This document shows positions 4,989 to 63,921 of a DNA stretch of 64,000 nt, in pieces (the stretch's first letter is position 1; each line of letters opens with the position of its first letter). Origin of the DNA: an uncultured Anaerolineae bacterium (GTDB lineage: Bacteria > Chloroflexota > Anaerolineae > JAFGEY01); the NCBI GenBank assembly GCA_964481205.1, contig CAYZYE010000001.1, forward strand, positions 16,552 to 80,551, read 5' to 3'. The translations under genes and the position numbers were made by a program. A model generated the notes under the pieces. It was given only the letters and a program-made list of their open reading frames with translations. It did no database searches and had not been told where the DNA came from.

Positions 4989-4996
4989 ATTTCCCC

Positions 4997-7900: not shown

Positions 7901-8041
7901 AATTGTGCCTGACTCTGGCGCGCCGAGCAAAACCATCAAGATAATAAAGGCAAAACCCAACCCTATTTTCCACAAAAGGCTCAACAGAGAATGCCGAAAG
8001 TCGAGCGGCCCCTCTTGTTCAACCCATTGAGATGCACCCAT
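4997..8041 (-). CDS. Hybrid sensor histidine kinase: polytopic membrane N-terminus, coiled coil, three GAF-type domains, HisKA, HATPase_c and C-terminal REC
   Basis: ATG with GGAGG at -6. H-box MSHELRTPLNSIIGFS, N-box NLMSNAAKFTEEG, G1 DTGIGM, G2 GTGLGM, then a REC (ILVIE..ILMDTQL..VVCS..FVPKP). It is the only intact kinase in the window and the last sensor of the train. Confidence 0.9.
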   Translation of the reverse strand: MGASQWVEQEGPLDFRHSLLSLLWKIGLGFAFIILMVLLGAPESGTIWYLFFAVLVAASILTQQFQQRNAFDRAAWAFILVNALALCVPLVFPPRFGDKTGEAMIWQSLPFAFTLLISISGLLLSPWSTVVLFGIQFLATVVFPALLGNAPPLAYGALLFSGLGVGLAWITFRPLFDTVKWALGSYQRAQERTEQLVQSRVELQKSLQQQDTLNQRLEQVNTELVQRAVQLRVSSQVSQVVTSAERIPELAEQVVQLVRQGFHMYTLLFLVDEDSAWMTVAASSSSEIPSGERAPVNDRTVAGWCVVHAQSRFVQEVSGQAAQASYHIADVYFEAAVPLSARGELVGVLSLQSPDRVTLDDQDVAILTTIADQTASGIANIRSMSEARFALEDLEQLRKRYVGESWDRLAPRLRSAGYQLRGGDIQPLGHRLVPQVANVLETDRPVVEPDRIAVPISYGGHVLGVLGVHDPGVAQTWSQDAVAIVQSIAEQMGQALENARLFEDAQERLAEITTLQQNLLRESWEDYLAIKDERDFIFRQPGVPPLEAVPSEAERVLTEKSPLAWAKEGDGDAETAFVAPIDRRGQVIGMLGVQELGMQREWSEEELEIIEGVTSQLSSAIENAQLFESLQQRAAEIERVAEQLREIDQFRAEFLATMSHELRTPLNSIIGFSRVMLKGIDGPLNEMQKTDLEAIYNNGQNLLRLINDVLDQSKIDAGKMELLLESDVDMSRLLEKEVRGTLAVQIGEKPVEPILNVAPDMPLIRADSTRIRQVIRNLMSNAAKFTEEGSITVSTWREEDLVYVSIADTGIGMPAEKMGLVFEKFRQLDSSSTRAAEGTGLGMPISRTLVEMHGGRIWAESEEGVGSKFTFYLPIAGPMADEIPELADLVIDKTKKMILVIERSSEDVAAYRRFLDSVGYQLVPLFDPQEAVRWSRYLNPFVILMDTQLGGEQGWALLETLKSTRHTRMTPIVVCSRGMDGGKAISMGAAAFVPKPVVAKQMLEILNRLARSAL

Positions 8042-19323: not shown

Positions 19324-19992
19324 TCAACCGCCAAACGCTTGAAAAGCCAGCGCGTAACAAACCCAAATCCAAAAGCCTTCAACCACGCCCAACGCCGCCG
19401 CCCATCCAAAACTCGACTTTTGCACCTTGCCGAGCAGCCAGGGCAAAGCGCCGACGATTAAAAACTCACCGGCAATGATATACCATGGCGTTGCGCCAAG
19501 CATCGGCGTGTTCCGATAATACCACCACTGCGCGCCCAACGCCCACTGCTCGTACAGCGGAATGTTGACTGCGCCGAGCAAGGCCGACAACAACATCGCC
19601 CAAACCAGCCCAAACCGCTGCCTAAACCGCCACCCGATATAAGCCAACTGGGTCAAAACCACACACCAGGCAAAGGGCATATATAGCGGCGAAGACAACC
19701 AAAACGGCCCACCGGGCACATAAACCAGCGTCTTTGTGGTTAAAACAAGATAGCGATCGGCCAACAACTCGACCAACCCCCCGACAATGCCAAAGAGAAG
19801 CAATTTGGGCAGCAAACTGTCACCTTTGAAATAAGCATAGCCCAGCATCAACAACGGGATCAAAAAAGAAATCACCGTCGCCGTAATCCATCCCCAGCCC
19901 AACAAAGAGCTGGTCGAATTCCAGATCAACGCCAGGGCCAACGTCCCCAACACAAACTTGTCTCGCAACGTCCAACCTTTACTTTTTACCAC
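19324..19992 (-). CDS. Integral membrane protein (6 TM), unknown function
   Basis: Continuous hydrophobic ORF between two sensor genes. The ORF-track start is TTG at 20076. GTG at 19990-19992 preceded by GAGGGGGAAA is preferred. No recognisable family. Confidence 0.5.
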   Translation of the reverse strand: MVKSKGWTLRDKFVLGTLALALIWNSTSSLLGWGWITATVISFLIPLLMLGYAYFKGDSLLPKLLLFGIVGGLVELLADRYLVLTTKTLVYVPGGPFWLSSPLYMPFAWCVVLTQLAYIGWRFRQRFGLVWAMLLSALLGAVNIPLYEQWALGAQWWYYRNTPMLGATPWYIIAGEFLIVGALPWLLGKVQKSSFGWAAALGVVEGFWIWVCYALAFQAFGG

Positions 19993-20076
19993 CAATTTCC
20001 CCCTCTTGAAGAACCAAATCTCTACGGCAACATTCCTCAATCCACCACCCGCCCCAGCAATCTGGGCCGCGCACAA

Positions 20077-22041
20077 TCACTCCGCCAGACCGTCTCTGGT
20101 CGCCGCTGCCCCGGCGTCTTGCGTCGCCAGCCGGATCACCACCTCATCCAACCCCAACGCCCGATACATCTCGTCGGCTGCCGTGCGCAGCACACTCTCG
20201 ACGTCAAGCGTTTCACGCATCCGCGCCGCTACGTCGCGCACCTTACGTTCTTGCCCGGCACGCAACCGCGCCTCTTCAAACAACCGTGCGTTATCCAAGA
20301 TCAGCTCCATCTGCTCCGAGACGGCGCGCACCAGACTGATCTGCCCCTCGGTCAGCGCCTGCTCCTCACCTTCGGCCTGCAAACCCAACAAACCAATCAC
20401 ATGACCGCGCTGCGCAATGGGCACCATTACATTCTGCCCCGACGACAAAGGCGCATCGACATCACCGGCAGCGAGACGGCCGGCCAAACCATCAATCTCG
20501 GGCGTTTCCAGTGCCGCAACGCCGGGCTGAGTGTATTGAAACACAGTTTGCTCCACCGTCGGCAAAAACTGCTCCCAACGCTCGCGCACATAATAACGCT
20601 GAAGCGCCTCCACCTCTTGCAAACGATCCTGCAACACAACCACAACACGGTCATAGGCAATCGCAACGGCAATTTGATCGGCAATGGTACGCAACGGCGT
20701 CACATCCTGCTCGTTAAAGGCATTTGCCTTTGCACTCTGCAAAGTCATCACCCCGGCGACATCTCCCTGAGTCACCAGAGGCAAAACCAGCATCGACTGC
20801 GTGTTTGCCAGAACAAACTCGACCCCCAAAAGCTCATCTTGCTGCACACATATACAGGCGCTCTTGGTATACATACATTGCCCCAAAGCCGATCCGCGAT
20901 CGACCCGCAAGCGCAGCGCGCGATCCAAAGTCTCGTCGTCTTTACCGGCCCAGGCCTGCAAAACCAAATGTTCGCGTTTTGGGTCGAGCAAAAACAAACT
21001 GACCTCGTACAAGTCCAACTGATCGCGCACCAACTTGACCGCCTGAGAGACAAAAGCATCGGGCGAAAGCGCCCGCGTCGCCAAATCTCCCACTCTGGCG
21101 CTCAACTCAAAATGTGAGGTCTGACGGCGCAAAGACTCGTTCACCTGGGCCAACTCGCGCTGCCGAACCTCACTCAACTCTCGCGCCTGTTGCAACGACT
21201 CGTTCTGCGCCTGAATGGTCCCCATCACCCGGATCTGCGTGCGGGCAAACATCCACTGCACCATCGCCACCATCAGCGAAATCAACACAAATGTCGCGCT
21301 CACCACCATAAACTGTGGAAAACTCTGCGCCAGATCGATATCGGTCTGAACCTCCAACCAACCCACATGATATGCCCAGGCTGCGCCAACAAACAACAAC
21401 ACATTGACCAATGCTGAAACGACCCCCGCCCTGGCGCCCACCAGAATGAAAAACAGCATCGAAGTGCCAAAAAGATACCAGGGAGCCGTGCTGACCATGC
21501 CATTCACACGGATCGACAACAAGGCAATGGTATAAGCCACCACAAACAAGGCGCTCGCCCGCCAGATATCGGCAACACGCCGCCAGAAAAACATGACCAC
21601 GATCAGCACATAGCCCGCAAAATAAGGCGCGTATGTCCTCAACTTGGTGAAATCGTCAACCGCGCCGGCAACCAACGCCAACATAGCCACCGTACCGCCC
21701 GCGGCAGCCGCGCCCAGCAACAAATTCAAAATGCGAGTCCGGCCTTGCGTCAGACTTTCGACCCCGGCCAATGACCGTTTCGCTTTCGGGGCGTCCTTCC
21801 GCTGACGGGCCGGCCGCGTAACCGGCTCGACAGGCCGTTCCTCAAGCGACAACATTGTGCTAACCGGCGGCACTTTATCAACAACCGGCGACTCGCCGGC
21901 CGCTGACTCGTCAGCCACCGGTGGCGGTTCTGTCACCGGCGTTTCCGCCGGCGCAACCGTTTCAGACGCAGGTGGTTTGTCCGGCTCGGGCACATCGCCG
22001 GGAAACAACTGATCAAGTTGATCTTCCAGACGATTCTTCAT
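20077..22041 (-). CDS. Pro-rich N-terminus - polytopic membrane - GAF-GAF sensor protein, no output domain
   Basis: ATG start. About 90 aa of acidic/Pro-rich N-terminus, then 6 TM helices, then tandem GAF (LDLYEVSLFLLDPKREHLVLQAWAG..), cap ..LDVESVLRTAADEMYRALGLDEVVIRLA. Confidence 0.8.
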   Translation of the reverse strand: MKNRLEDQLDQLFPGDVPEPDKPPASETVAPAETPVTEPPPVADESAAGESPVVDKVPPVSTMLSLEERPVEPVTRPARQRKDAPKAKRSLAGVESLTQGRTRILNLLLGAAAAGGTVAMLALVAGAVDDFTKLRTYAPYFAGYVLIVVMFFWRRVADIWRASALFVVAYTIALLSIRVNGMVSTAPWYLFGTSMLFFILVGARAGVVSALVNVLLFVGAAWAYHVGWLEVQTDIDLAQSFPQFMVVSATFVLISLMVAMVQWMFARTQIRVMGTIQAQNESLQQARELSEVRQRELAQVNESLRRQTSHFELSARVGDLATRALSPDAFVSQAVKLVRDQLDLYEVSLFLLDPKREHLVLQAWAGKDDETLDRALRLRVDRGSALGQCMYTKSACICVQQDELLGVEFVLANTQSMLVLPLVTQGDVAGVMTLQSAKANAFNEQDVTPLRTIADQIAVAIAYDRVVVVLQDRLQEVEALQRYYVRERWEQFLPTVEQTVFQYTQPGVAALETPEIDGLAGRLAAGDVDAPLSSGQNVMVPIAQRGHVIGLLGLQAEGEEQALTEGQISLVRAVSEQMELILDNARLFEEARLRAGQERKVRDVAARMRETLDVESVLRTAADEMYRALGLDEVVIRLATQDAGAAATRDGLAE

Positions 22042-22792
22042 ACGCTAACAACTCCTCGGCCAAAGCCCGATACTGCCGCGCACCGCGCGTATCGGGTTTA
22101 TAGATCGTGATCGGCTGGGCCACAATCGGGCTTTCACGCAACTTGGTATCCACCTCGATCACGGTCTCAAAAAGCGCTTGCGGAAATCGCGCGCGCATTC
22201 GTTCCAAAATTTTCACACAAATGCTGTTCCGACGATCATACATTGTCACCAACAACCGGTAACGCAAACCAGGGTTGCTCTTTTTGCGCGTCCGTTCGAT
22301 CAACTCGAACACATTGTCCAACGAGCGCACGGCAAAATACTCGGCCTGGATGGGCACAATGAGAAATTGGCAAGCCGCCAGCGCGTTGAGCGTCAACGGC
22401 CCAAACGCAGGAGCACAGTCGATCAGGACGTAATCATACAATGCCTCATCTACCCCGGCCAACGCCTCCCGGAGATACATCTCGTACCCCTCGCCCCGAT
22501 AAAGAACCTGGTCGATTGTCGCCAACTGGGGACTGGCCGGAACAATCTCTAAACCGGCCAACCCGGTCTCGCGGCTGACGCTGACCAGCGTCGCATTGTG
22601 CAGCATCGAATCGGCCACCGTCCGTCGCAAAGTGTGCGGTTCAATCCCCAACGACAAGGTCAAACTCGACTGCGGATCGAGATCGATCAACAACACCGTC
22701 TTGCCCATCTCGACCAGGCATGCGCCCAAAGACAAACAAGTCGTCGTCTTGGCCACGCCCCCTTTTTGATTCGCAATTGCCACCGTACGCAT
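22013..22792 (-). CDS. ParA/MinD-family P-loop ATPase
   Basis: Start at ATG 22790-22792 (MRTVAIANQKGGVAKTT, deviant Walker A). Typical ParA length of about 260 aa. Overlaps the next gene by 29 nt. Confidence 0.85.
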   Translation of the reverse strand: MRTVAIANQKGGVAKTTTCLSLGACLVEMGKTVLLIDLDPQSSLTLSLGIEPHTLRRTVADSMLHNATLVSVSRETGLAGLEIVPASPQLATIDQVLYRGEGYEMYLREALAGVDEALYDYVLIDCAPAFGPLTLNALAACQFLIVPIQAEYFAVRSLDNVFELIERTRKKSNPGLRYRLLVTMYDRRNSICVKILERMRARFPQALFETVIEVDTKLRESPIVAQPITIYKPDTRGARQYRALAEELLAYEESSGRST

Positions 22793-22819
22793 TGATCTAC
22801 CACCCACCGCCGGCCCAAA

Positions 22820-25800
22820 CTAGGCCGCCGGCTCACCCTCGACTCTAGGTTCCGAAGTCAGGCGAATGAATGCCCGCGACACCCCCAACGCCTGCCCCAA
22901 CTCTCGCACCGCCGTACTCAAGATCGAATCCATATCTGCGTGCGCACGCATCTTGCTCGTGATCTCGCGGATCAGCTGCTCACGACGCGCGCGGCTCTCG
23001 GCATCCTGGTACAGACGCAAACTGCGCAAAACGACGGCCGCCTGATCGCTGACCGATTGGTAAACGCGCAATTCTTCGGGCGTAAACACGTGCGGTGTCT
23101 TGGACGTGACCATCACATACCCCTGCCACTCGTCGCCGACGGCCAACGGCATCAAAGCCAACGCGCGGATCTGCATTTGCTCTACCGCCGCACGCAACAC
23201 ACCCGATATGCGCTCATCGGCGTCCACATCCGAACTGACCAACACTTTTGTCGGCGACAAAATACCAATAAACGGATCCTGCGCTGCGGGTCGAACCGTA
23301 CCCACCGGGATCGAACCTGGGACGTCGGCGCGATCCCAAAACGCGGCCACCATTTGCTTGCCCAACTCGGGCTGCGACGACGGCTTGTCCAAAATAAAGA
23401 TCGTCGCCTGGTCCACCGGCGTGCTCTTGACCACGTCCAGAACAACCTGGTAAACATCCTCGGCCGACCCGGCGGCGCTGATCCGGCGGCTGGCCTCATA
23501 CAACTGTTCAGCCTGAATGCGCGTGATCTCGGAGGACTCGAAAAGCCGTTCCGACTCGATAATATCACCCACACTTTCCACGATCGATTGAATGAGCGCC
23601 AACTCGTGCTCGCTCCACGTTTCTCCCTCACGCGCAATGTCGATCACCCCGATCGTCTGCCCACGGTGTTGAAGGGGCAACGCCACCGTCTTGGCCGCCC
23701 CCCCCTCTTGCTCACCGCGCACAGCCGTGACCATCTGATCGTGAGCGATCGCCTGGGCCATTTCCGGCGTCCAAAAATCGCTGGTTGGCGTCAACCCGTC
23801 CGGCCCGGCGACATAACCTTCGATTCCGGCCCCATAACCGGCCAAAAATTCATCCCACGTTTGGCGTAGATAACGACGGTGCGTCGCCTCGGCCTCGGCC
23901 AACGCAGCGCGGGTCCGAGTCAGCAATTGGTTGCGCTCGATACTGTCGCTCAACAACGAGCCAATTTGGCGCATCAGCGTCTCATCACGCCCGGTATACG
24001 GCTCATCTCGAGAACGCCCCACGTTCAACGTACCAATGACCTCTCCACCCACAACAAGCGGCGCGCTCAATATCCACCGCAAGCCCTGTTCCGACAAAGC
24101 GCGCAAATCCGCAAACTCGCTGTCCGGCCTGACCGGGGTGAGGAGCATGCGGTTCTCTCGCACCACCTGTCCGATCGCCATGCCCTTGACCGGCAGTTGA
24201 GCGCCAACCGGCATTGCGCCGGCCTCGCCGTCGAGCGCCAACACCTCCAAATGGTCACCAGACTCGGTGAGCAATGATACACTGCTCCGATCGGCATCGA
24301 TGATCTGACCGACATTGGCAGCGACAATGGACAAAATCTCTTCGCGGCGAGTCGCCTCGCTCAATTGCGCACTCATTTCGTTCAACATTGCCAACCGCTG
24401 CGCCTGGTCTTTGGACTCGGCCAATGCCCGCTGATTCATCTCGGTCAACCGTGCGCTCTCTAGCGCCTCGGCAGCCTGATCGAGAATCGCCTGCACCAGT
24501 TCTTGCTCCTCAGGAGCAAACGGCGACTGGGAATCGTGCTCAAAGCCAACGACGCCAATTGGCTCACCTCGCACCATCAACGGCATAGATACGACACGCG
24601 CCTGCGCATCGGCAGAAACAGAATCAACCGGCGCGCCCAACGCCGCTGCCGGGTCTTGCTCATCCACATCCTGCACCGCAAACTCGGCCGGATCGAACAG
24701 GTAGCCAGCCGGCAAAGCGGACTGTTCCTGAAATGCCTGCCATCCTTCGCGGCTCACCATCCGGTACAGGGTATTCAACTCGCGCAGCCGCTCATCCATT
24801 TCCGCTTCAGCCTGCCGGCGCTCGGTCATATCGGTCAACACATCGGCAAGATAACGAGGATTGCCCTCCTGGTCACGAATCACAAAATAGTTTTCCAGCG
24901 TTGGCGTCACCCGGCCGTCGAGCGAGATGACAACCAGTTCTCCCGTCCATTGTTCTCCACGAATCAATGTTGGCAGCACCTCATTTTGCAATTTCTGCTG
25001 CATCTCAGGCGCATAATACGTGTCGATTGGCTTGCCGACTGCGTGGGCCGGGCTTTCCTCGCCCAACATCCGGCACAACGTCGAGTTCACATAGACGATT
25101 CGCCCTTCCATATCGGCAATGCCAAAACCCTGCCCAGAGGCCTCGGCAAAACGACGGAACATACGCGCTTCTTCGAGCAACTGGCTGGCCTCCATCGCCA
25201 CCGCAATCGGGCCGGAAATCGACTCTAGCAGCAAACGGTCGTCATCGGTCAACGCGCCGGCGCGGTCGCTCTGCACATCCAACACACCCAACACCTCGCC
25301 GCGCAACATAACCGGCACCGCCAACTCGGCCTGCGTATCCGGCAGATCAGAGTTCGGTTGCCAATCGGGGTTCTCGCGGACATTGGCCGCCAACACCGAC
25401 TCACCCGTCGCCGCCGCCGTGCCCACCACCCCGCTGCCCATCGCCAGGCCGTGTTTGGCAGCGACCATCTTGGCCCCGGCCTCGCCATAGCCAGACACAA
25501 CCACCATTCGCTCTTGCTTGACATCATAACGGAATATCTGGGCGTGGTAATAACCCAACTGCTCTTTGACCAGCGTCACCACGCGGCGGAACAACTCGTC
25601 GAGCTGCGGCACACCGGCCAACGCCTGCGACACTTGCGCGCTCACCCTCGCTTGCTGCGCCCGACGCTCGATCAGCCGCTCGCGCTCTTGTTCGGCGCGG
25701 ATCCGCTCGCTGATGTCGCGACCAGCCGACAAAAGATACCGCTTGCCCCCAATAGAAATACCGGACAATGAAACCTCCACATCAAACAACTCGCCGGTAT

Positions 25801-26812
25801 CATGACGCATATGTTTCCAGTAAAACCTTTGCGGCTCTCCCGCCACCGCCCGCTCGATGTATTTGATTGCCTTTTTGCTCGACAACTGGCCATCCGGCTG
25901 TCTTTCGGGACTGACGTCCAAAGGCGTCGCACCCAACATCTCTGCCTCATCTCGATAACCATACATCTCGATCGCCCTGGCATTGTTCGCAACAAATTTA
26001 CCATCCTCGATCAAATGCAACGCATCAGAGGCCAAATCAAAGATACCCTTGAACTTGGCTTCACTCTCCTGTACCGCCTCTTCCGCCCGCTTGCGCTCGC
26101 TGATGTCGCGGGCAATCGTCGCCAAAGACACCACCTGCCCTCGCTCGTCCCGCATCGCCGTGAGCACCTGCGACACCGGAATCACACGGCCGTCTTTGGA
26201 CACCAGCATAGTCTCTCCGGCCCACACCCCGTCGCGCACCACAATATCCAGGACATCTGACGGCAAATCGGGCTGAAAACTGGACATGTTCATCCCGGCG
26301 TAAAACTCGTCTGCCGTATAGCCCACCATTTGCAGGCCGGCGGGGTTGACATAAATACCGGCGCCGTCGGGCATAGCGATGCCAATAAAATCGGTACTGG
26401 TTTCCAGCACCTGGCGGTAGCGCGCCCGCTCGATCTCACGCTCGCGCTCGTGCGTAATGTCTGCAAGCGCAACCCGAAGCAGCGTCTGCGACCCCACATC
26501 CACCCGGCGCAGCGACATCCGGGCATAAAACTCGCTGCCATCGAGACGGTGTTGCATCCACTCGAAACGCTGCGGCTCACCAGCCAGAGCTGTGTCGAAC
26601 CGTTCCCGCACGACCTCGGTCGAACGACGACCATCTGGCTGCACCGCCGGCGCCAAGTCAGACGGCACTTTGCCGATCAGATCACCGCGCGCGCAGCCAA
26701 ACAACTCTAACGCGCTGGCATTGCACTCGACAAAGCGCCCGCCCTCAATCAAGAGAATCGCGTCATCGGCAGACTCAAACAACACCCGATACAGATCGTT
26801 CTCTGCACTCAT
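22820..26812 (-). CDS. Soluble PAS(x4)-GAF multi-sensor protein, no output domain (1330 aa)
   Basis: Start moved to ATG 26810-26812 (MSAENDLYRVLFESADDAIL, PAS S-box), 1 nt after the upstream stop, with GGAGGA at -9. At least four PAS domains interleaved with GAF domains and a C-terminal cap ..MDSILSTAVRELGQALGVSRAFIRL. Contains repeat copy 1 (see repeat feature). Confidence 0.85.
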   Translation of the reverse strand: MSAENDLYRVLFESADDAILLIEGGRFVECNASALELFGCARGDLIGKVPSDLAPAVQPDGRRSTEVVRERFDTALAGEPQRFEWMQHRLDGSEFYARMSLRRVDVGSQTLLRVALADITHEREREIERARYRQVLETSTDFIGIAMPDGAGIYVNPAGLQMVGYTADEFYAGMNMSSFQPDLPSDVLDIVVRDGVWAGETMLVSKDGRVIPVSQVLTAMRDERGQVVSLATIARDISERKRAEEAVQESEAKFKGIFDLASDALHLIEDGKFVANNARAIEMYGYRDEAEMLGATPLDVSPERQPDGQLSSKKAIKYIERAVAGEPQRFYWKHMRHDTGELFDVEVSLSGISIGGKRYLLSAGRDISERIRAEQERERLIERRAQQARVSAQVSQALAGVPQLDELFRRVVTLVKEQLGYYHAQIFRYDVKQERMVVVSGYGEAGAKMVAAKHGLAMGSGVVGTAAATGESVLAANVRENPDWQPNSDLPDTQAELAVPVMLRGEVLGVLDVQSDRAGALTDDDRLLLESISGPIAVAMEASQLLEEARMFRRFAEASGQGFGIADMEGRIVYVNSTLCRMLGEESPAHAVGKPIDTYYAPEMQQKLQNEVLPTLIRGEQWTGELVVISLDGRVTPTLENYFVIRDQEGNPRYLADVLTDMTERRQAEAEMDERLRELNTLYRMVSREGWQAFQEQSALPAGYLFDPAEFAVQDVDEQDPAAALGAPVDSVSADAQARVVSMPLMVRGEPIGVVGFEHDSQSPFAPEEQELVQAILDQAAEALESARLTEMNQRALAESKDQAQRLAMLNEMSAQLSEATRREEILSIVAANVGQIIDADRSSVSLLTESGDHLEVLALDGEAGAMPVGAQLPVKGMAIGQVVRENRMLLTPVRPDSEFADLRALSEQGLRWILSAPLVVGGEVIGTLNVGRSRDEPYTGRDETLMRQIGSLLSDSIERNQLLTRTRAALAEAEATHRRYLRQTWDEFLAGYGAGIEGYVAGPDGLTPTSDFWTPEMAQAIAHDQMVTAVRGEQEGGAAKTVALPLQHRGQTIGVIDIAREGETWSEHELALIQSIVESVGDIIESERLFESSEITRIQAEQLYEASRRISAAGSAEDVYQVVLDVVKSTPVDQATIFILDKPSSQPELGKQMVAAFWDRADVPGSIPVGTVRPAAQDPFIGILSPTKVLVSSDVDADERISGVLRAAVEQMQIRALALMPLAVGDEWQGYVMVTSKTPHVFTPEELRVYQSVSDQAAVVLRSLRLYQDAESRARREQLIREITSKMRAHADMDSILSTAVRELGQALGVSRAFIRLTSEPRVEGEPAA
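24640..25690. repeat. Segmental duplicate copy 1 (about 1.05 kb, roughly 90% identical to 27776..28826)
   Basis: Six-frame ORFs in both regions give near-identical peptides in all frames (e.g. PSPPQSGRKSTLAANGR at 25192 and 28328, offset 3136 nt). At protein level the block is LIERRAQQARVSAQVSQ.LAGVPQLDELFRRVVTL.KEQLGYYHAQIFRYDV.QERMVV..GYGEAGA.MVAA.HGLAMGSGVVG.AAATGESVL..NVRE.PDW.PN.DLPDTQ.ELAVP..LRGEVLGVLDVQSDRAGALTDDDRLLLESISGPIAVAMEA..LLEEA..FR... Confidence 0.8.
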
Positions 26813-26813
26813 G

Positions 26814-29800
26814 CTATGCTTCCTCCGCGTCTTTGGCTTCTGCCGCCTGAACACGCGACCGTGCCTCGATGGACTGTGTCAACTGGCTCACATCACCCAC
26901 GCTCACAAAAGTGCGCCGTCCCAAGACCTGCCCCAACTCTCGCGCCAACGCGCGCAAGACGCCATCCACATCGGGCGGCGTGCGCAGCCGGCCTGCCATC
27001 TGCCGGAGCTGCTGCTCACGTTGGGCGTTGGCGCGCGCCTGAACCAACAACCGCCGGCTCTCCACGGCCGTCGAAGCCAGACCGATCAAGGCGTCGTAAA
27101 TTTCTTTCTCTCGCCGGCCAAATTGGCGAGGAACCGTCCAGGTAAAGCGCACGAGACCCACCCAGCGCCCGCCCCGCGCCAGAGGGACAATAACCATCGC
27201 CCGGCAGTTCATTCTAGCCAGCACTTTTTGGACATTTTTCCCAATCCGCTCATCCGCCGCCGTATCGGCAATAAACATAGCCTGCTCAGGAGAAGCAACC
27301 CACAAACGCGAGAGGGCAAAATCGGGCAAATGGTAGCGTGTTCCCGCCGGGAAAACACTGTCGCCGTCACGCTGCCAGGTAGCGACGATCTCGGCCCATT
27401 CTGGGCGACCTTGAGCGTCCAAATCGACATACATCAAATCAACCCGCGCAACCCCCGTGTCGGCGACCGGCCGCACCACAGCCTGCAACAATTCATTCTC
27501 ATCTCGCGCAACACCCAAAGCACGGCTTACGTCGTAAAGCATCTGTATTTGACTCAACATATCTCTGGTTTCTTGCGACAACCGCGCGCCCTCTAGCGCC
27601 TGCGCCACCTGATCGGCCAACTGCTCCACCAGCGCCAGCTCTTCGGCAGACAACGGATACTCGGGATCGTCATAAAGACCCAGCGCGCCCACCACCTCAC
27701 CGCCAGGCACCGACAACGGCGCGACGACAACAGGCTGTTCCTGCGTCGTGACCACCAAACTACCCGTCGAAGCCGCTTCACCGATCTCGGGCAGCCATAG
27801 ATCGTCCTTGCGTTTGGCCTCGACACCATCATAAAAATACCCGCCGGGCAACGCAGCCAGGTCACGAAAAGCCCCCCATCCTTCCGCGCTGATCGTGCGA
27901 TACAGGCTGTTCAATTCTTGCAAACGTTCCTGTATTTCAGCCTGCGTGCGCCGGCTCTCGGTAATATCGGTCACAATATTGACGATATAGCGCGGCTGAT
28001 CCGCCTGATCTTGGAGCAAGAAAAGGTTGTGCAAAGTTGGCGTCACCCGCCCGGTTCGCGCTCGCAGCATCACCTCGCCCTGCCACCGCCCTTCCGCCAT
28101 CACCGCGGGCAAAATTTCACTTTGCAACCGCTGCTGCTCGTGCCTGGGATAATACTTGACGAACGGGTTTCCAACAAATGAATTGATGTTTGGCTCACCC
28201 AGCATCTCCAACAACGCCGGGTTGCCGTAAAAAGCCTGACCATCCAACGTGCCCATACCGATGCCCTGCCCGGCGTTCTCCACCAACAAACGGAACGTCT
28301 GCGCCTCTTCGAGCAAACGTCCGGCTTCCATCGCCACCGCAATCGGGCCGGAAATCGACTCTAGCAGCAAACGGTCGTCGTCAGTCAGCGCGCCGGCGCG
28401 GTCACTCTGCACATCCAACACACCCAACACCTCGCCGCGCAGCACGATAGGCACCGCCAACTCGCCTTGCGTATCCGGCAGATCGGGGTTCGGCCGCCAG
28501 TCGGGATGCTCACGCACATTAGACACCAACACCGACTCACCCGTCGCCGCCGCCGCGCCCACCACCCCGCTGCCCATCGCCAAGCCGTGCCCGGCAGCGA
28601 CCATCCTGGCCCCGGCCTCGCCATAGCCGGTCGCCACCACCATCCGCTCTTGCGCTACATCATAACGGAATATCTGGGCGTGATAATAACCCAGCTGCTC
28701 TTTGGCCAGCGTCACCACGCGGCGGAACAACTCGTCGAGCTGCGGCACACCGGCCAATTCCTGCGACACCTGCGCGCTCACCCGCGCCTGTTGCGCACGG
28801 CGTTCGATCAACTGCTCACGTTCCTCGGTAAAGCGTATCCGCTCGGTAATATCGCGCGAGAACCCCAACACGCCAACAATCTCTCCCTGCGCGTTACGCA
28901 GCGGCGATTTGACCGTCTCGAGAATCACCGTTTCATCTTTGCTCATCTGCACCGGAACATAAGGATTACGCAGCGTCTCGCCGGCCAACACCTTGAGGTC
29001 ATCATTGCGATAACCGCTGATCCCCTTTTCGGGATTGCCTTCGATCTGCTCAACGGGAAATCCCATCTCGTAATCGTCTTTACCCACAAAATCGTCCGGC
29101 GTCAACCCCATATACTTGGCAATGATCCCATTGTTCACCAAAATGTACCGCAAGTCGCGGTCCTTGGCAAAGATCCAATCGTTCGTAGAATCAATCACCA
29201 TCCGCAGCAAAATCTGCGACTCTTGAACCTGTGCCAAAAGCCGCTTTTGCTCCTCCTCCACTCGCTTGAATTCGGTCACATCGGTCGAAATACCCGCAAT
29301 GGCATAGATTTGGCCGGATGAATCAACGAGCGGAAACTTGTTGGACAAATATGTATGCAATCCATCCTCATGCGGCGCGACTTCTTCCATTGCCACAGGC
29401 ACACCCGCGTCGAGTACCTGCAAATCGGTCTTTCGGAAAACGGCCGCCAATTCTGGCGGGAAAACATCGTAATCAGTCTTGCCAATGATGCCCTCTTTGG
29501 TGACATGAAACAATATCTCGTACTGACGATTGACCAATATATATCGCCCCTCGGCATCCTTGACATAAGCCACCGCGTTGGCATTATCAATAAAACCTTG
29601 TAACAACTGTTCGCTCTCCCGCACCGCCTCTTCCGCCTGCTTGCGCTCGCTAATGTCACGCACGATGCCCAACACACCGGTCACATCACCTTCATCGTCA
29701 AAGAGCGGCACCCGCGTTGTATCCATCCAGGCTTGCGTGCCATCCTCACGCCGCCGAGACTGAACGACGTGAAACTGGGGGGTTGCCGTCTCGATCACCT

Positions 29801-31175
29801 GGCGATCGGTAGCACGAAAAACATCTGCCGCCGACCTGTCCCAACCCAAATCGTAATCGGTCTTGCCAACCACACTCTCCGGCGCGTCCAAACCAGACGC
29901 CTGGGCAAAGCGCGTGTTGCAGCCCAAATAGACCAGATCGCGATCCTTCCAAAACATCATATCAGGAATCGTATCGATCACCAGGCGCAGCATCCGCTGA
30001 GACGCCTGCCACGCCTGCTCGGTCTGTTTCTGCTCACTCACATCGCGTTGAATGGCGATAAATTGCTCGATATGGCCGGCATCATCCAAAACGGGCGAAA
30101 TGCTCAATTGAGCATGATACAACGTCCCATCTTTGCGGCGATTGACCACCTCACCTTCCCACGTCTGACCGGCCGTGATCGTCCGCCACATTCTGGCATA
30201 GTCGGCCTCATCCTGCACGCCGCTTTTGAGAAGGCGCGGATTTTCACCCACCGCCTCTTGCACCGAATAACCCGTCACCTGCTCAAACGCCGGGTTGACA
30301 AACAACACATCGCCGTTCACAGCAGTGATCATGATCGCGTCGCGCGTTGCATCCACTGCGCGGGCCAGACGCTGCAATTCGATCTCAAACTCTTTGCGTG
30401 CAGTAATATCTTCGTACATTGCCAAAATGGCCACCACTTGATCGTCCGCGTTCTTGAGCGGAATCTTGCTGGTACGCAGCCAGCGCCGCTTACCATCGGG
30501 CATAAGCAGCTGCTCCTCGTAATCCAGTTTGGGCTGCCCCGATTCGAGCACCTGGCGGTCATCGGCGCGAAAACGTTCTGCTTGGGCCTTGGGCGAGAGA
30601 TCATAATCGGTCTTGCCGACAACTTCCTCCGGCGTCAGCCCTTTGCCCTGCGCAAAGACCCGGTTGCACCCCAAATAATTCAGCTCCTTGTCCTTCCAGA
30701 ACACCGACTGTGGGATATGGTCCATAATCAAGCGCAGCATTTGCCGCGACCCTTGCAAACCGGACAGCATTGACACATTATCGAGCAAACTGCTTTCCGA
30801 CCGGACGACGCTGCGCGGCGCCTCGGTAACAACCATCTTGGCCCGCGACACCAGACGCCACACAAACTTGGTCGTTTCGAGATCGTCGATCAGCGGAATC
30901 AATACCTCTTCCAGGGCAAACAAAGCATGTGCAAAAGACTCGACATCCAGATCATGATCGAGACGCCCCTGCACGCGCGCTTGGGCAAACTCGACAAACA
31001 GCCGCTCATCGCCTTGTTCCAGACTATCGACCACCGCCCGGAACGCCGCGCGCGCAAGCTCTAACCGCTCTGCCTCGGCAAGCGCCGTATAGTCCGAAAT
31101 ACTCGACAGACGCTGCGCATAACCGCGTGCCAACTCGTCAAGTTGCTTCTTGATGGCTGATGCGAGTTTGTGCAT
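26814..31175 (-). CDS. Soluble PAS(x6)-GAF multi-sensor protein, no output domain (1453 aa)
   Basis: ATG start immediately after the upstream stop (TAGATG). Six PAS/PAC units (e.g. IPQSVFWKDKELNYLGCN.., ATRDAIMITAVNGDVLFVNPAFEQVTGY..), then GAF domains and cap ..VDGVLRALARELGQVLGRRTFVSVG. Contains repeat copy 2. Confidence 0.85.
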   Translation of the reverse strand: MHKLASAIKKQLDELARGYAQRLSSISDYTALAEAERLELARAAFRAVVDSLEQGDERLFVEFAQARVQGRLDHDLDVESFAHALFALEEVLIPLIDDLETTKFVWRLVSRAKMVVTEAPRSVVRSESSLLDNVSMLSGLQGSRQMLRLIMDHIPQSVFWKDKELNYLGCNRVFAQGKGLTPEEVVGKTDYDLSPKAQAERFRADDRQVLESGQPKLDYEEQLLMPDGKRRWLRTSKIPLKNADDQVVAILAMYEDITARKEFEIELQRLARAVDATRDAIMITAVNGDVLFVNPAFEQVTGYSVQEAVGENPRLLKSGVQDEADYARMWRTITAGQTWEGEVVNRRKDGTLYHAQLSISPVLDDAGHIEQFIAIQRDVSEQKQTEQAWQASQRMLRLVIDTIPDMMFWKDRDLVYLGCNTRFAQASGLDAPESVVGKTDYDLGWDRSAADVFRATDRQVIETATPQFHVVQSRRREDGTQAWMDTTRVPLFDDEGDVTGVLGIVRDISERKQAEEAVRESEQLLQGFIDNANAVAYVKDAEGRYILVNRQYEILFHVTKEGIIGKTDYDVFPPELAAVFRKTDLQVLDAGVPVAMEEVAPHEDGLHTYLSNKFPLVDSSGQIYAIAGISTDVTEFKRVEEEQKRLLAQVQESQILLRMVIDSTNDWIFAKDRDLRYILVNNGIIAKYMGLTPDDFVGKDDYEMGFPVEQIEGNPEKGISGYRNDDLKVLAGETLRNPYVPVQMSKDETVILETVKSPLRNAQGEIVGVLGFSRDITERIRFTEEREQLIERRAQQARVSAQVSQELAGVPQLDELFRRVVTLAKEQLGYYHAQIFRYDVAQERMVVATGYGEAGARMVAAGHGLAMGSGVVGAAAATGESVLVSNVREHPDWRPNPDLPDTQGELAVPIVLRGEVLGVLDVQSDRAGALTDDDRLLLESISGPIAVAMEAGRLLEEAQTFRLLVENAGQGIGMGTLDGQAFYGNPALLEMLGEPNINSFVGNPFVKYYPRHEQQRLQSEILPAVMAEGRWQGEVMLRARTGRVTPTLHNLFLLQDQADQPRYIVNIVTDITESRRTQAEIQERLQELNSLYRTISAEGWGAFRDLAALPGGYFYDGVEAKRKDDLWLPEIGEAASTGSLVVTTQEQPVVVAPLSVPGGEVVGALGLYDDPEYPLSAEELALVEQLADQVAQALEGARLSQETRDMLSQIQMLYDVSRALGVARDENELLQAVVRPVADTGVARVDLMYVDLDAQGRPEWAEIVATWQRDGDSVFPAGTRYHLPDFALSRLWVASPEQAMFIADTAADERIGKNVQKVLARMNCRAMVIVPLARGGRWVGLVRFTWTVPRQFGRREKEIYDALIGLASTAVESRRLLVQARANAQREQQLRQMAGRLRTPPDVDGVLRALARELGQVLGRRTFVSVGDVSQLTQSIEARSRVQAAEAKDAEEA
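27776..28826. repeat. Segmental duplicate copy 2 (partner of 24640..25690)
   Basis: See copy 1. Lies inside the adjacent gene 26814..31175 in the same orientation. Confidence 0.8.
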
Positions 31176-33938
31176 CTACTCGCCTCCTTCCTGTGTCGCC
31201 GGGGCCTGGGCCAACTGTTCGGCGCTGCCCAATCGCACAAACGCGCGCCGTCCCAACACGGTACCCAATTCTCGCACCGCCGCACGTACAATGACATCTG
31301 GGTCGGTTGAACCACGCAAACGCATCGTGATTTCCCGCAAAATTTGCTCTCGACGAGCACGCGCTTGCGCGCTTGCAAGCAAACGCGCATTCTGGATCGC
31401 AATAGACGCCTGACTGGCAATCGAGAGCAGCAAAGCCTGATCGTGTTCATCGTAGCGGCGCGGCATATCGCTTTGCACGGCAATCACACCGATCGCCTCT
31501 TCTTCGATCACCATCGGCACCCCCAGCCACGACGTTGTCTCCTGGCCGATCGAGGCAACACCCGCCGCCTCTAACCATCGAGCGAGATTCTCCCTGACCA
31601 ACAACGGCTCGCGGCTTTGAAGCACATACTCGGTCATTCCCTGACCAAAATCGCGCGGCCGCCACGCGACACGCTTGCCCTTTTCGCGGGCCAGTGGAAA
31701 TCTAATCTGCCCGGTCGACGAGTCGTACATAGCAACGTAGAAATTGGTCGTATCGAGCAAGCGGGAAGCATATTGGTGAATATTCTCAATCACCGCATCC
31801 GCATCCAACCTGGTGGTCAAAGCGCGTCCCATTTCGGCGAGCACGGCCTGCTCGTTAGCATGTGTTCGGGCTTGCTCAAAAAGCCGGGCATTCTGAATTG
31901 CTGCCGCCACCTGACTGGCAATAGTGGTCAGCAGTTCCAAATCATGTTGATCGTACATCCGAGACGCATCATAACTTTGCACCGCCATGACGCCCTGCAC
32001 CTGATCGCCCAGACGCAATGGCACGCCCAAGTAGCACTGCGCGTTTTCGCCTATCACCGAAATGTCGCGCTCGGCCAGCCACTCGTGGACATCCTGACTG
32101 ATCAACACGCTCTCCCCGCTGCGAATGATATAACCGGTAATGCCATCATCGGCAGAAATGACTGTAATGTTTTTATCAACCACCGACTCGGTCACATCCA
32201 GCGGAAAAGTCACCTGGTTGCTGACCGCGTCGTACAAACCGATGTAAAAGTTGTCTGCCTGGACCAACCGGGCAACACTGCGATACACCGCGTCGAGCAC
32301 CTGATCGATATCGAGCCGGGCAGAAAGCAGCCGCCCCATCTCGTACAACACCCGCGATTCTTCCGCGCGAGACCGCGCCTGCTCGAGCAACCGGGCATTC
32401 TGAATGGCAATCGCCGTCGAGGCCGCAATCGTCGTCAACAATTCCCGTTCGTGTTCCCCATACAACCGGGGCGTCGTATGACTCTGTACGCCAATCACGC
32501 CCAGCACACGGTCGCCGAGCATCATCGGCACACCCAACCACGACGCCGCCTCTTGACCAACCCGGTCGATCCCCAACTCTTTTTGTCGCTCCCGGACATT
32601 GTCTGGCAAAAGCACGCTGGTGCGATTGCGCACAATGTACCCGCCAATCCCCTCTTGGACCGAAACAGACGTAATCGCTTTATCGATCTCGGAATCGCTG
32701 ACCTCAAAACGAATATCGATCATTTCGCGTTCGGGATCGTAAAGGCCAATATGAAAATTCTCGGCGTACATCAACCTGGAAACCTGCCGATAGGCCTCTT
32801 GCAGCACATCGTCCAAATCCAAACGCGCCGTCAACGCCTGACCCAACTCGTTGAGCACCACCAGTTCTTCAGAACGCACCTGCATTTGCTCCAACAGCCG
32901 TCGAATCTCAATGTACCCGCTGACCCGGCGGGACACGTTGCCCAACAAGGCGCTTTCCTCGTCCATAAAATCATAGTCTTGAGTATAGGCCACATAAACC
33001 TGACCGACCAACTCGCCCCCCACCCGCAGCCCTTGAACCATTTGCCGGGGCAAATCGACCGCTTGGGACGCGCCATAAACCTGCTCACCAAGCCGGACGG
33101 CCGCCACACACACATCTGGATGCAACATTGCCGCAGGAATGCGTTCTGCCACCCACTGCAAAAATTCGCCCAACGGCGGCGACTCGTCAATCCGGCGTCC
33201 AATGTCGCTCAAAAAATCCAACTCTTTGACGCGCTTGGACATCAAATAACTAACCCGCTGCTGCTCGTCCAGCAAACGCTGGTTTTCGAGCGCCTGCGCA
33301 ACCTGATCGACCACCGAGCGCACGATCTCTAACTCGGTCTCGCTCCAACCCTGGCCGTTCCGGCTAAACCCCAATACACCCAGCACCTCGTCATAAAATG
33401 TGATCGGAACGGCCAACTCGGAACCATCTCGATCATCTTGCACCGTCACCGTATCCACCTGATGGATGGCATCCGCCATCGCCGGCAGCCACGCGCTCTT
33501 GGGCGCAACCTCCTGGCCTTCATCGAGCACATATCCAAGGTGCATTTGAGACTCGACCGTATAGGTCTCCCAACTCTCGCGCACATAGCGACGTTGCACG
33601 GCCAATACTTGCTGCAAAGCGGCGTCCAATTCCTGGCGCGCCCGCTCGGCATCTGCCCTGGCCCGCATCTGCTCAACGCTCCGCTCGCGCAAATCAACGA
33701 CCATCGCCTGCAAACCGGCCGCCAATTCCGAGAGCGCCGCCAGCCCCTCCCGCGCCTCGACCTCAACATCCAGATTGCCTGCCGCCACGGTACGAACCAC
33801 ATCGAGCAAAGCATACCCTTGCTCTTCGGCCTGCTCATAAGCCTCATCTACCGCCTGCACAAACGCCTGCCATTCTGGAGGCGCAGATGCGATCTCACCG
33901 ACATAACGCCCCAGTTGACGCTCCAATAACCTGTGCAT
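31176..33938 (-). CDS. Soluble penta-GAF protein, no output domain
   Basis: ATG start with GGAGGA inside the upstream gene's last codons. Five successive GAF-like units (..FHIGLYDPEREMIDIRF.., ..FYIGLYDAVSNQVTFPL.., ..FYVAMYDSSTGQIRFPL..), cap ..PDVIVRAAVRELGTVLGRRAFVRLG. Confidence 0.8.
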   Translation of the reverse strand: MHRLLERQLGRYVGEIASAPPEWQAFVQAVDEAYEQAEEQGYALLDVVRTVAAGNLDVEVEAREGLAALSELAAGLQAMVVDLRERSVEQMRARADAERARQELDAALQQVLAVQRRYVRESWETYTVESQMHLGYVLDEGQEVAPKSAWLPAMADAIHQVDTVTVQDDRDGSELAVPITFYDEVLGVLGFSRNGQGWSETELEIVRSVVDQVAQALENQRLLDEQQRVSYLMSKRVKELDFLSDIGRRIDESPPLGEFLQWVAERIPAAMLHPDVCVAAVRLGEQVYGASQAVDLPRQMVQGLRVGGELVGQVYVAYTQDYDFMDEESALLGNVSRRVSGYIEIRRLLEQMQVRSEELVVLNELGQALTARLDLDDVLQEAYRQVSRLMYAENFHIGLYDPEREMIDIRFEVSDSEIDKAITSVSVQEGIGGYIVRNRTSVLLPDNVRERQKELGIDRVGQEAASWLGVPMMLGDRVLGVIGVQSHTTPRLYGEHERELLTTIAASTAIAIQNARLLEQARSRAEESRVLYEMGRLLSARLDIDQVLDAVYRSVARLVQADNFYIGLYDAVSNQVTFPLDVTESVVDKNITVISADDGITGYIIRSGESVLISQDVHEWLAERDISVIGENAQCYLGVPLRLGDQVQGVMAVQSYDASRMYDQHDLELLTTIASQVAAAIQNARLFEQARTHANEQAVLAEMGRALTTRLDADAVIENIHQYASRLLDTTNFYVAMYDSSTGQIRFPLAREKGKRVAWRPRDFGQGMTEYVLQSREPLLVRENLARWLEAAGVASIGQETTSWLGVPMVIEEEAIGVIAVQSDMPRRYDEHDQALLLSIASQASIAIQNARLLASAQARARREQILREITMRLRGSTDPDVIVRAAVRELGTVLGRRAFVRLGSAEQLAQAPATQEGGE

Positions 33939-63418: not shown

Positions 63419-63844
63419 TCATCCCCCGGCAAGCGTTCTCCCCAAATCCCACACCTGCTCCCCCCGCAGCGCCATCATCACCTGGTCGGGAAAACGATCC
63501 GGATCGATCGGCTTGGCAATAAAACCATCAAAACCGGCCTCGCGCGCGCGCCGCATATTGTCCTCGGTCGCTTCAGCCGTCACCGCCAGCACACACGTCT
63601 TTTCAAAGCGCGGATTCGAGCGCAGCCGTTCCAAAGTCGTATATCCATCCTCATAAGGCAAATGGATGTCCAACAAGATCAAATCTACCCTGGGCAACGA
63701 ACTCCCCAACCCCTGTATCTGGCGTCCGGTTCGACTCCAATCCAGCGACTTGACCCCCATAAACTTGAGCAGTCGAGCGATCAAGGTATAGTTGTAGATA
63801 TTGTCCTCAATAACCAGAATATGCGCATTTGCTGGTTCTACCAT
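63419..63844 (-). CDS. Stand-alone response-regulator receiver (CheY-like)
   Basis: Start ATG (MVEPANAHILVIEDN) with AGGGAG at -8. Phospho-acceptor LILLDIHLP, VLAVTA, IAKP. No output domain. It lies at the head of the train. Confidence 0.8.
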   Translation of the reverse strand: MVEPANAHILVIEDNIYNYTLIARLLKFMGVKSLDWSRTGRQIQGLGSSLPRVDLILLDIHLPYEDGYTTLERLRSNPRFEKTCVLAVTAEATEDNMRRAREAGFDGFIAKPIDPDRFPDQVMMALRGEQVWDLGRTLAGG

Positions 63845-63921
63845 AACACAACTCCCTATTACAGAACGACAAAAGCCCCAGTAAGGCAACTCGGGAGAAA
63901 TAATTGTCCCAGATTAGCAAA

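Follow-up and report, generated by a model that had tools for sequence, protein, structure and literature searches.

How did one sensory domain come to be nearly the same in two neighbouring giant genes that are far less alike over the rest of their length? The question is raised by a stretch of 64,000 nucleotides (nt) from an uncultured Anaerolineae bacterium of the Chloroflexota (GenBank assembly GCA_964481205.1, contig CAYZYE010000001.1, positions 16,552 to 80,551), the whole of which is called the window here. Two adjacent genes of this window, A and B, encode sensors built of PAS and GAF domains and carry a direct repeat whose copies start 3136 nt apart according to a repeat finder. An earlier note on this DNA had pointed out the two same-orientation neighbours and their repeat, and both the gene coordinates and the spacing were recovered in the present analysis. 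That note read the repeat as a recent exchange of about 1.05 kb comprising a GAF domain and the PAS domain that follows it. The results described below point to a smaller and one-way event, in which ectopic gene conversion has very probably overwritten the GAF of gene B with that of gene A, its downstream neighbour. The conversion is of moderate age and represents a new instance of a well-known process. The two genes, as given by the list of open reading frames (ORFs), are:

22820..26812, minus strand: gene A, 1330 amino acids (aa) from the ATG at 26812
26814..31175, minus strand: gene B, 1453 aa

Nearly all of the window codes on the minus strand, and both genes lie in this direction. Gene B ends with a TAG stop codon and the ATG of gene A follows 1 nt later, with a GGAGGA Shine-Dalgarno sequence just upstream of this ATG; an additional open GTG is found 14 codons upstream of it. 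Equally tight coupling joins gene B to the preceding gene (g31176). Pfam recognises five GAF and three to four PAS stretches in gene A, six PAS_4 and three GAF stretches in gene B, and no output domain in either of them, so that both consist of PAS and GAF domains only. Rfam, promoter and terminator scans gave nothing above chance. The decisive relative for the comparison is L033, a 29-kb metagenome contig with a syntenic orthologous locus in which the gene order g31176-B-A-ParA-g20077-g17550 is kept. The ortholog of gene A is L33_8000 (A_L33; 48-55% aa identity, syntenic) and that of gene B is L33_2535 (B_L33; 49% over 1324 aa, syntenic).

Comparison of the window with itself by BLASTN yielded one outstanding internal match, between 24711-25720 and 27847-28856 (75.8% over 1021 nt, 712 bits), the runner-up reaching 164 bits. 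The repeated segments correspond to a GAF followed by a PAS in both genes, as confirmed with Pfam, and the identical run quoted in the earlier note, ALTDDDRLLLESISGPIAVAMEA, is the same in both proteins. The alignment of all 1021 nt and the GAF-PAS-small-GAF order common to both genes would fit a single recent exchange or duplication of about 1.05 kb that carried the GAF and the following PAS together. The identity of about 90% claimed for some 347 residues did not hold, since the ungapped comparison of 24640-25690 with 27776-28826 gave 73% nt and 65% aa identity, with 88.6% aa identity over the 175 residues of the GAF half and 42% over the 175 of the PAS half. In a sliding window, the protein identity between A and B is around 20-35% ahead of A residue ~355, rises to 80-100% from ~370 to ~548 and drops abruptly past ~548, to 35-50% through the PAS and then lower still. 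The PAS half is 42-46% identical in aa and 61% in nt, and within 25-codon windows the nt identity in the flanks is 52-71%. The codon alignment delimits a tract of 480 nt in which the two copies show 49 differences (89.8% nt and 89% aa identity), the three longest exact shared runs being 53, 52 and 37 nt. The parts of the repeat are:

25166..25645, minus strand: young conversion tract, copy in A (codons 390-549)
28302..28781, minus strand: young conversion tract, copy in B (codons 799-958), an A-type GAF in B context
25160..25174, minus strand: 3' crossover zone in A (codons 547-551), within the C-terminal helix of the GAF
28296..28310, minus strand: 3' crossover zone in B (codons 956-960)
24713..25165, minus strand: PAS after the GAF in A (codons 550-700), unconverted; 45% aa identity between A and B, synonymous divergence 1.32
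27849..28301, minus strand: PAS after the GAF in B (codons 959-1109), unconverted and orthologous to the PAS of B_L33

A conserved block of this kind could also arise by ordinary old paralogy, without any transfer of DNA, if purifying selection acted far more strongly on the GAF than on the PAS. It is true that the GAF is generally better conserved, the L033 orthologs of A and B being 62% identical in the GAF versus 41% in the PAS, and that codons 375-389 combine a high protein identity with saturated silent sites. The silent sites of the tract itself contradict this explanation. The Nei-Gojobori estimates of the proportion of synonymous differences (pS), the synonymous divergence (dS) and the nonsynonymous divergence (dN) on the A/B codon alignment are:

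codons 357-389 of A (5' flank): pS 0.78, dS saturated, dN 0.347
codons 390-549 of A (tract): pS 0.23, dS 0.28, dN 0.061
codons 550-700 of A (PAS): pS 0.62, dS 1.32, dN 0.43

The drop in synonymous divergence by which gene conversion is recognised is thus present, with a dS of 0.28 in the tract and saturation in both flanks (pS 0.62-0.78). Fourfold-degenerate sites are the same in A and B at 71 of 78 positions in the tract versus 16 of 37 in the flanks (p = 8e-8). Among codons for identical amino acids, silent changes affect 19 of 137 in codons 390-549, 12 of 21 on the 5' side and 31 of 65 on the 3' side. For the best two-breakpoint partition, codons 390-561, the maximum chi-square was 40.5, which none of 1000 permutations matched. 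Further, without conversion the identity is 62% aa and 69% nt, the baseline seen in L033, compared with the 89% observed, and the GAF of B is closer to the ortholog of A than to the ortholog of B. With these data, old paralogy without transfer retains next to no probability. The earlier note had proposed that similarity spread uniformly over the two genes would mean ordinary paralogy; the similarity is not even, and silent divergence steps from a dS of 0.28 to saturation at the edges of the block.

The same evidence bears on the larger exchange. The silent-site breakpoint on the 3' side falls at codons 549-561, at the GAF/PAS junction, and the site pattern of B turns from A-type to B-type between ...AMEA.RLLEEA and QTFRLLVENAGQGIG. 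Beyond this point the PAS shows a dS of 1.3, and the PAS of B is orthologous to that of B_L33 (60% identity, bootstrap 100%), not to the PAS of A. What stands of the original proposal is a sharp-edged, younger block in frame, with gene conversion as the right class of process; its length is about 480 nt instead of 1.05 kb and it holds the GAF only. That one recent event carried GAF and PAS together is hardly credible. The note had also described the remainder of the two proteins as no more alike than other paralog pairs of the window, and this is true in part: the PAS and the next small GAF-like domain (39-46% aa) lie at approximately the 90th-95th percentile of the high-scoring segment pairs between window paralogs. 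This raised similarity reflects an older shared duplication, and the comparison with L033 shows that A and B each had their copy of the GAF-PAS-small-GAF module before that lineage split off. Within the young tract the differences are mildly clustered (variance/mean 1.63, p = 0.025); variable loops fit this pattern equally well, and a division into several sub-tracts is not claimed. The dN/dS ratio between the tract copies is about 0.2, and both copies have been under purifying selection since the conversion.

Which of the two genes gave the domain and which one received it can be approached through the orthologs. The aa identities for the three consecutive segments are:

GAF tract: A-B 0.89; B-A_L33 0.72; B-B_L33 0.59; A-A_L33 0.68; A_L33-B_L33 0.62
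PAS: A-B 0.45; B-A_L33 0.42; B-B_L33 0.60; A-A_L33 0.54; A_L33-B_L33 0.41
next 100 residues: A-B 0.39; B-A_L33 0.29; B-B_L33 0.64; A-A_L33 0.55; A_L33-B_L33 0.36

Inside the tract, A and B resemble each other more than they resemble their respective orthologs, and the downstream flank keeps the orthologous grouping, which is the pattern that identifies conversion between paralogs. Neighbour-joining trees agree with it: the GAF tree joins A and B (bootstrap 99.5%), and the PAS tree joins B with B_L33 (100%) and A with P0001 and P0002 (100%), the closest protein fragments. Counting the sites at which B shares the state of A_L33 or that of B_L33 gave ratios of 7:2 in codons 361-389, 30:11 in codons 390-549, 14:41 in codons 550-700 and 3:34 in codons 701-800. 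When pooled, these counts are 37:13 for codons 361-549 versus 17:75 for codons 550-800 (p = 1.2e-10). Gene A carries A-type states in every segment, and in the GAF tract its identity to B_L33 (0.59) is below that to A_L33 (0.68). The donor keeps its own type, copy number and gene order are unchanged and both ORFs are intact. Taken together, these patterns indicate a non-reciprocal transfer, with A as the donor lineage and B as the recipient. The term exchange used in the earlier note is for this reason replaced here by that of a one-way transfer, as A stays A-type throughout.

The age of the event was bracketed with P0001 and P0002, P0002 (locus L032) serving as the outgroup for DNA and P0001 being compared as protein. 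Their GAF is 78-80% identical to both A and B, and their PAS is 59-61% identical to A and 50-52% to B. In three-taxon counts with P0001, sites at which A and B agree against the outgroup make up 17 of 29 informative sites in the GAF and 11 of 61 in the PAS (p = 2e-4). Over the same codons of the tract, the dS of P0002 to A or B is 1.1-1.4 versus 0.31 between A and B, and therefore the coalescence of A and B is much younger than the split of the P0002 lineage. The conversion thus postdates the split from both the L033 and the P0001/P0002 lineages. The adjective recent is too strong for it, with a dS of 0.28 and 49 substitutions between the copies. The best loci of a genome-collection scan, L001 and L002 (50-53% identical), proved to be PAS-GAF histidine kinases and not orthologs, and they were discarded for dating. 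A protein search with the PAS of B and its downstream segment returned no closer B ortholog at E <= 1e-20; giant orthologs may lie outside the reach of this tool, the matches of the first search being all <= 676 aa.

A donor other than the neighbour would leave a similar trace if an A-type GAF from another paralog of the genome, or from a related organism, had overwritten B or both genes. This GAF subfamily is widespread in Anaerolineae proteins, with 55-80% identity to the copies in A and B, only 64 kb of the genome are visible, and the poor homology available for a direct first event (see below) leaves room for other routes. On the other hand, the window holds no other copy, its remaining GAFs being 27-38% identical to that of A, and the closest external GAFs reach 78-80%. 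The GAF of A behaves as a native one (A-A_L33 0.68 > A-B_L33 0.59, with consistent flanks), and the neighbour, at a distance of 3.1 kb, requires the fewest assumptions as a donor. A third-party donor is accordingly considered improbable.

Another possibility is that the tract in B, or in A, was created by the assembler as a chimera when crossing between similar repeats or strains. Exact shared runs of 52-53 nt do exist. Nevertheless, collapse or cross-joining would yield identity, and 49 of the 480 positions, scattered over the tract, differ between the copies; the dN/dS of about 0.2 between them corresponds to real, selected divergence. Both genes are intact, and their alignment with the orthologs remains collinear through the tract and on either side of it, so that an assembly chimera is very unlikely. 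The hazard of misassembly or collapse that the earlier note had raised is also low, the longest exact shared run being 53 nt at about 90% identity.

Next, it is worth considering what the tract encodes. The Pfam GAF_2 match covers residues 404-541 of A and 813-950 of B, and the whole-protein scores are 178 bits for A and 135 bits for B, compared with a curated cut-off of 28.6 (GAF being Pfam PF13185 / PF01590). Residues 355-565 of A were modelled with AlphaFold2 (AF2) from an alignment of 42 sequences; the model has a mean predicted local distance difference test score (pLDDT) of 90.4 and consists of a long N-terminal helix (358-398), a compact alpha/beta core and a long C-terminal helix (523-559). 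The best fold matches in the PDB are all GAF domains, namely PtsP (3ci6/3trc), fRMsr (3mmh) and Lcd1 (5w10), with template modelling (TM) scores of 0.75-0.86 normalised to the target. In this model, both edges of the tract lie inside the long helices that link the GAF to the neighbouring PAS domains. The tract takes in the end of the N-terminal connecting helix, the entire GAF fold and some two thirds of the C-terminal helix. Because its edges are placed within connecting helices, one complete GAF fold was transferred in frame.

A PDB sequence search placed fRMsr-type GAFs first, with weak similarity (E = 2e-8 to 3e-7). The free methionine-R-sulfoxide reductase fRMsr is a GAF-fold enzyme that bears catalytic and resolving cysteines in the GAF pocket. 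No cysteine is present in the 160-residue tract of either A or B. The 'GDGLCSLA' motif of Ta0848 aligns with 'GSGVVGTA', so that the 'GLC' of fRMsr stands opposite 'GVV' in the tract. An identity as a cysteine-based fRMsr was ruled out on these two grounds, and the tract therefore represents a GAF predicted to act in binding or signalling, not an enzyme, with an fRMsr/PtsP-like fold. It has this fold in common with the GAFs of the fRMsr, PtsP and Lcd1 type (PDB 3mmh, 4mn7, 3ci6, 3trc, 5w10); in contrast to them, it sits between signalling helices in a multidomain sensor.

The region immediately 5' of the tract raises the question of whether the young event was the first one. It comprises most of the helix that connects the PAS to the GAF:

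25646..25732, minus strand: 5' extension in A (codons 361-389), most of the PAS-to-GAF connecting helix
28782..28868, minus strand: 5' extension in B (codons 770-798), putatively left over from an older conversion of greater length

Over codons 361-389, B matches A at 24 of 29 residues and shows states of the A lineage; in LIERR, for example, the second position is Y in B_L33 and in other relatives. The silent sites of this extension are saturated, changes affecting 12 of 21 codons for identical amino acids versus 19 of 137 in the tract (p = 3.9e-5). The chances are about even, on the pattern of these sites, that the young event lies over an older conversion which reached some 30 codons further 5' and was later partly refreshed.

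Regarding the mechanism, the patch has kept both flanks and the copy number has remained constant; it is therefore attributed to gene conversion and not to unequal crossing-over. The conversion is best explained as a non-reciprocal homologous recombination between two tandem, same-strand, translationally coupled PAS/GAF genes, by which one entire GAF fold was swapped in frame while gene order, copy number and architecture were left untouched. It may have begun by RecA-type strand invasion or by template switching at short identical stretches within conserved GAF motifs. A rare event of homeologous or template-switch type may have come first, after which further conversion would become easier, and homogenisation would then be recurrent, with a young tract on top of an older one. 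In the resulting B protein, an A-type GAF with its signalling helix would drive the B-type downstream domains.

Several points weigh against this reconstruction. The unconverted GAFs of L033 share 69% nt identity and a longest exact run of 11-13 nt, compared with runs of 52-53 nt in the present copies of A and B; such sequences are a poor substrate for classical RecA-dependent recombination. The donor could be elsewhere in the genome, of which 64 kb were seen, and the assembly was judged from the contig sequence and its orthologs. The nested older event draws on few characters (7:2 sites; 12/21 versus 19/137 silent changes). Finally, the sole syntenic ortholog pair, that of L033, is distant (~50% aa), and no closer relative was found; the timing is therefore coarse.

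How general is this kind of event in the locus and its relatives? No other paralog pair of the window exceeds 58% local aa identity, and no second conversion was found in it. Self-comparison within each of 39 related loci detected no repeat of >=75% identity over >=150 nt in any Anaerolineae locus. A candidate second micro-conversion, 26060-26110 versus 29610-29660 (45 of 51 nt, spacing 3550, in a different register), corresponds to the PAS-PAS linker motif RDISERKxAEEAVxESE and was set aside, since so short a segment does not allow conversion to be told apart from constraint combined with codon bias. The statement of the earlier note that the array is still evolving by domain swapping finds no backing here, as there is no second event in the window or within the 39 related loci and the corresponding place in B_L33 is already taken by a same-subtype GAF, so that the conversion created no new architecture. 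Changes of architecture do occur among the orthologs: A_L33 (L033 8000-12373) and B_L33 (L033 2535-8003) have around 290-370 extra N-terminal residues, which correspond to additional PAS domains, and gene A has roughly one extra GAF (residues ~806-915) compared with A_L33. Gain and loss of domains seems to be a commoner and more visible mode of change in this family than conversion.

Gene conversion between duplicate bacterial genes has been described for tufA/tufB in Salmonella (PMC5485169) and for the RF1/RF2 genes (PMC4530459). These cases and the A/B pair have in common a non-reciprocal transfer between paralogs of one genome, a tract bounded by homology and, over this tract, a greater likeness between paralogs than between orthologs. 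The tuf genes, however, are near-identical along their whole length and continuously homogenised, whereas A and B are diverged multidomain genes (~25-45% aa elsewhere) in which one internal domain was affected by a rare event, the copies having diverged to 90% nt identity afterwards. Concerted evolution of multigene families, as in the rRNA operons (PMC6002687), follows the same principle by which repeated conversion keeps copies alike, and the possible nested events in A/B hint at recurrence; A/B differ from the rRNA operons in involving two copies, one domain and 90% identity rather than about 100%. Closer in scale are the modules of assembly-line polyketide synthases, where conversion operates at the level of domains and includes GRINS elements that promote it (PMC8256042). 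In these modules and in A/B alike, segments of 0.3-1.4 kb, often entire domains of giant modular proteins, are homogenised, and paralogous modules cluster against orthologs. Unlike the synthases, A and B are sensors and not biosynthetic enzymes, and a single pair is affected. A literature search on gene conversion in GAF proteins gave nothing specific.

GRINS are defined as duplicated regions of >500 bp with >80% DNA identity inside a cluster, in which the mean absolute GC skew and TA skew are >0.15, above the surroundings and intercorrelated. The A/B tract is about 480 nt long, despite its 89.8% identity, its GC skew is 0.24-0.26 and its TA skew 0.10-0.146, and the two skews correlate inside the tract with r = 0.07-0.13. 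A GRINS element was rejected as the cause in view of this length, of a TA skew of 0.10-0.15 and of skews no stronger than the background of the window. That background is itself unusual. The skew of the coding (minus) strand is strong and uniform across the window, with means of +0.215 for GC and +0.134 for TA in 150-nt windows, and much stronger than the usual replication skew; the fourfold sites of gene A are G 45%, C 29%, T 18% and A 8%. The GC content at third codon positions (GC3) of the tract, 0.79 in A and 0.78 in B, is the highest among comparable GAFs of the window (range of the others 0.54-0.76) and about 0.10-0.12 above the remainder of genes A and B (0.66-0.69). The unconverted GAF of A_L33 is also GC3-elevated (+0.08). 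The GC3 of the tract is compatible with GC-biased gene conversion, of which it is a weak hint at best.

The locus provides a well-resolved natural case of domain-precise gene conversion in giant modular sensors, for which the donor, the recipient, the edges, the relative age and a possible earlier event are identified. It illustrates one route to re-pair a sensory module and its signalling helix with foreign downstream domains while frame and architecture stay undisturbed. A practical consequence is that whole-protein orthology calls and domain trees of these PAS/GAF families will be misled at this GAF. The conversion does not demonstrate active domain shuffling of the array, nor does it pose a serious assembly problem. 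A more speculative idea, which we regard as unlikely, is that the homogenisation is maintained and not accidental: as neighbours in the array, A and B might need matching modules of GAF and signalling helix in order to heterodimerise or to sense one common ligand, and both would pass their signal to the one hybrid histidine kinase with which the array ends. If this were true, the repeated conversion of exactly this module, in an older and a younger nested tract, would record in the genome a selection for partner sensors that co-evolve within a new type of Anaerolineae multi-sensor signalling assembly.

Genes A and B are part of a long same-strand, tightly packed, operon-like run of genes that extends over ~8-64 kb of the window (8077-63889, minus strand). 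It contains about 19 sensors, assembled from dCache, dCache_3, periplasmic-binding-protein, MASE11 or PAS domains together with HAMP and GAF, and no output domain is recognisable in any of them. Literature on output-less GAF sensor arrays in Chloroflexi yielded nothing specific, and the output-less sensor array is probably a more interesting object than the conversion. The other genes located at its two ends and inside it are:

63419-63889, minus strand: REC (receiver) protein, upstream end of the array
61029-63353, minus strand: HAMP-GAF-HisKA protein, upstream end of the array
4997-8041, minus strand: GAF-HisKA-HATPase-REC hybrid kinase, downstream end of the array
3321-5120, minus strand: fusion of a pyridoxal phosphate (PLP)-dependent enzyme (PALP family) with a C-terminal receiver, downstream end of the array
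22013-22807, minus strand: ParA/MinD-like ATPase (AAA_31, CbiA, BcsQ families), directly downstream of gene A, mid-array
51881-53413, minus strand: squalene-hopene-cyclase/prenyltransferase-like alpha-alpha toroid protein, non-sensor gene in the array
53557-54528, minus strand: 323-aa protein without Pfam match, non-sensor gene in the array
19324-20076, minus strand: DUF6989 protein, non-sensor gene in the array

Homologs of the PALP-REC protein (48% identity) follow giant PAS-GAF histidine kinases in two Chloroflexota metagenome-assembled genomes (L001 12605-14248 and L002 4679-6322), and the pair formed by the kinase and PALP-REC looks like a conserved output end. The ParA/MinD-like ATPase is 81% identical to its L033 ortholog, versus ~50% for the flanking sensors, and is by far the most conserved gene at the locus. 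Similar runs of sensor genes are found in the Anaerolineae loci L003, L005, L006, L010, L011, L013 and L033.

A conserved C-terminal tail occupies the last ~45-85 residues of the products of 19 window genes (e.g. 22820-23050, 26814-27070 and 31176-31400) and is also present in P0001, P0002, P0004, P0006 and P0011. Sensor genes with this tail also form runs in other Anaerolineae loci, but in none of the non-Chloroflexota loci. The tail resembles a GAF-GAF junction cut after the first helix and strand of the next GAF (R.EQ.I..I..R.R...D.D.VL.TAV.ELG..LG.....VRLG), followed by an acidic tip. A circularly permuted last GAF was rejected for gene A, whose last GAF is complete ahead of the tail. In AF2, the typical C-terminal module is a tandem-GAF rod that ends in a helical stub (pLDDT 88.5; about 80 for the stub), and this model resembles the tandem GAFs of phosphodiesterases (PDE) and CyaB2 as well as GAF-PHY.

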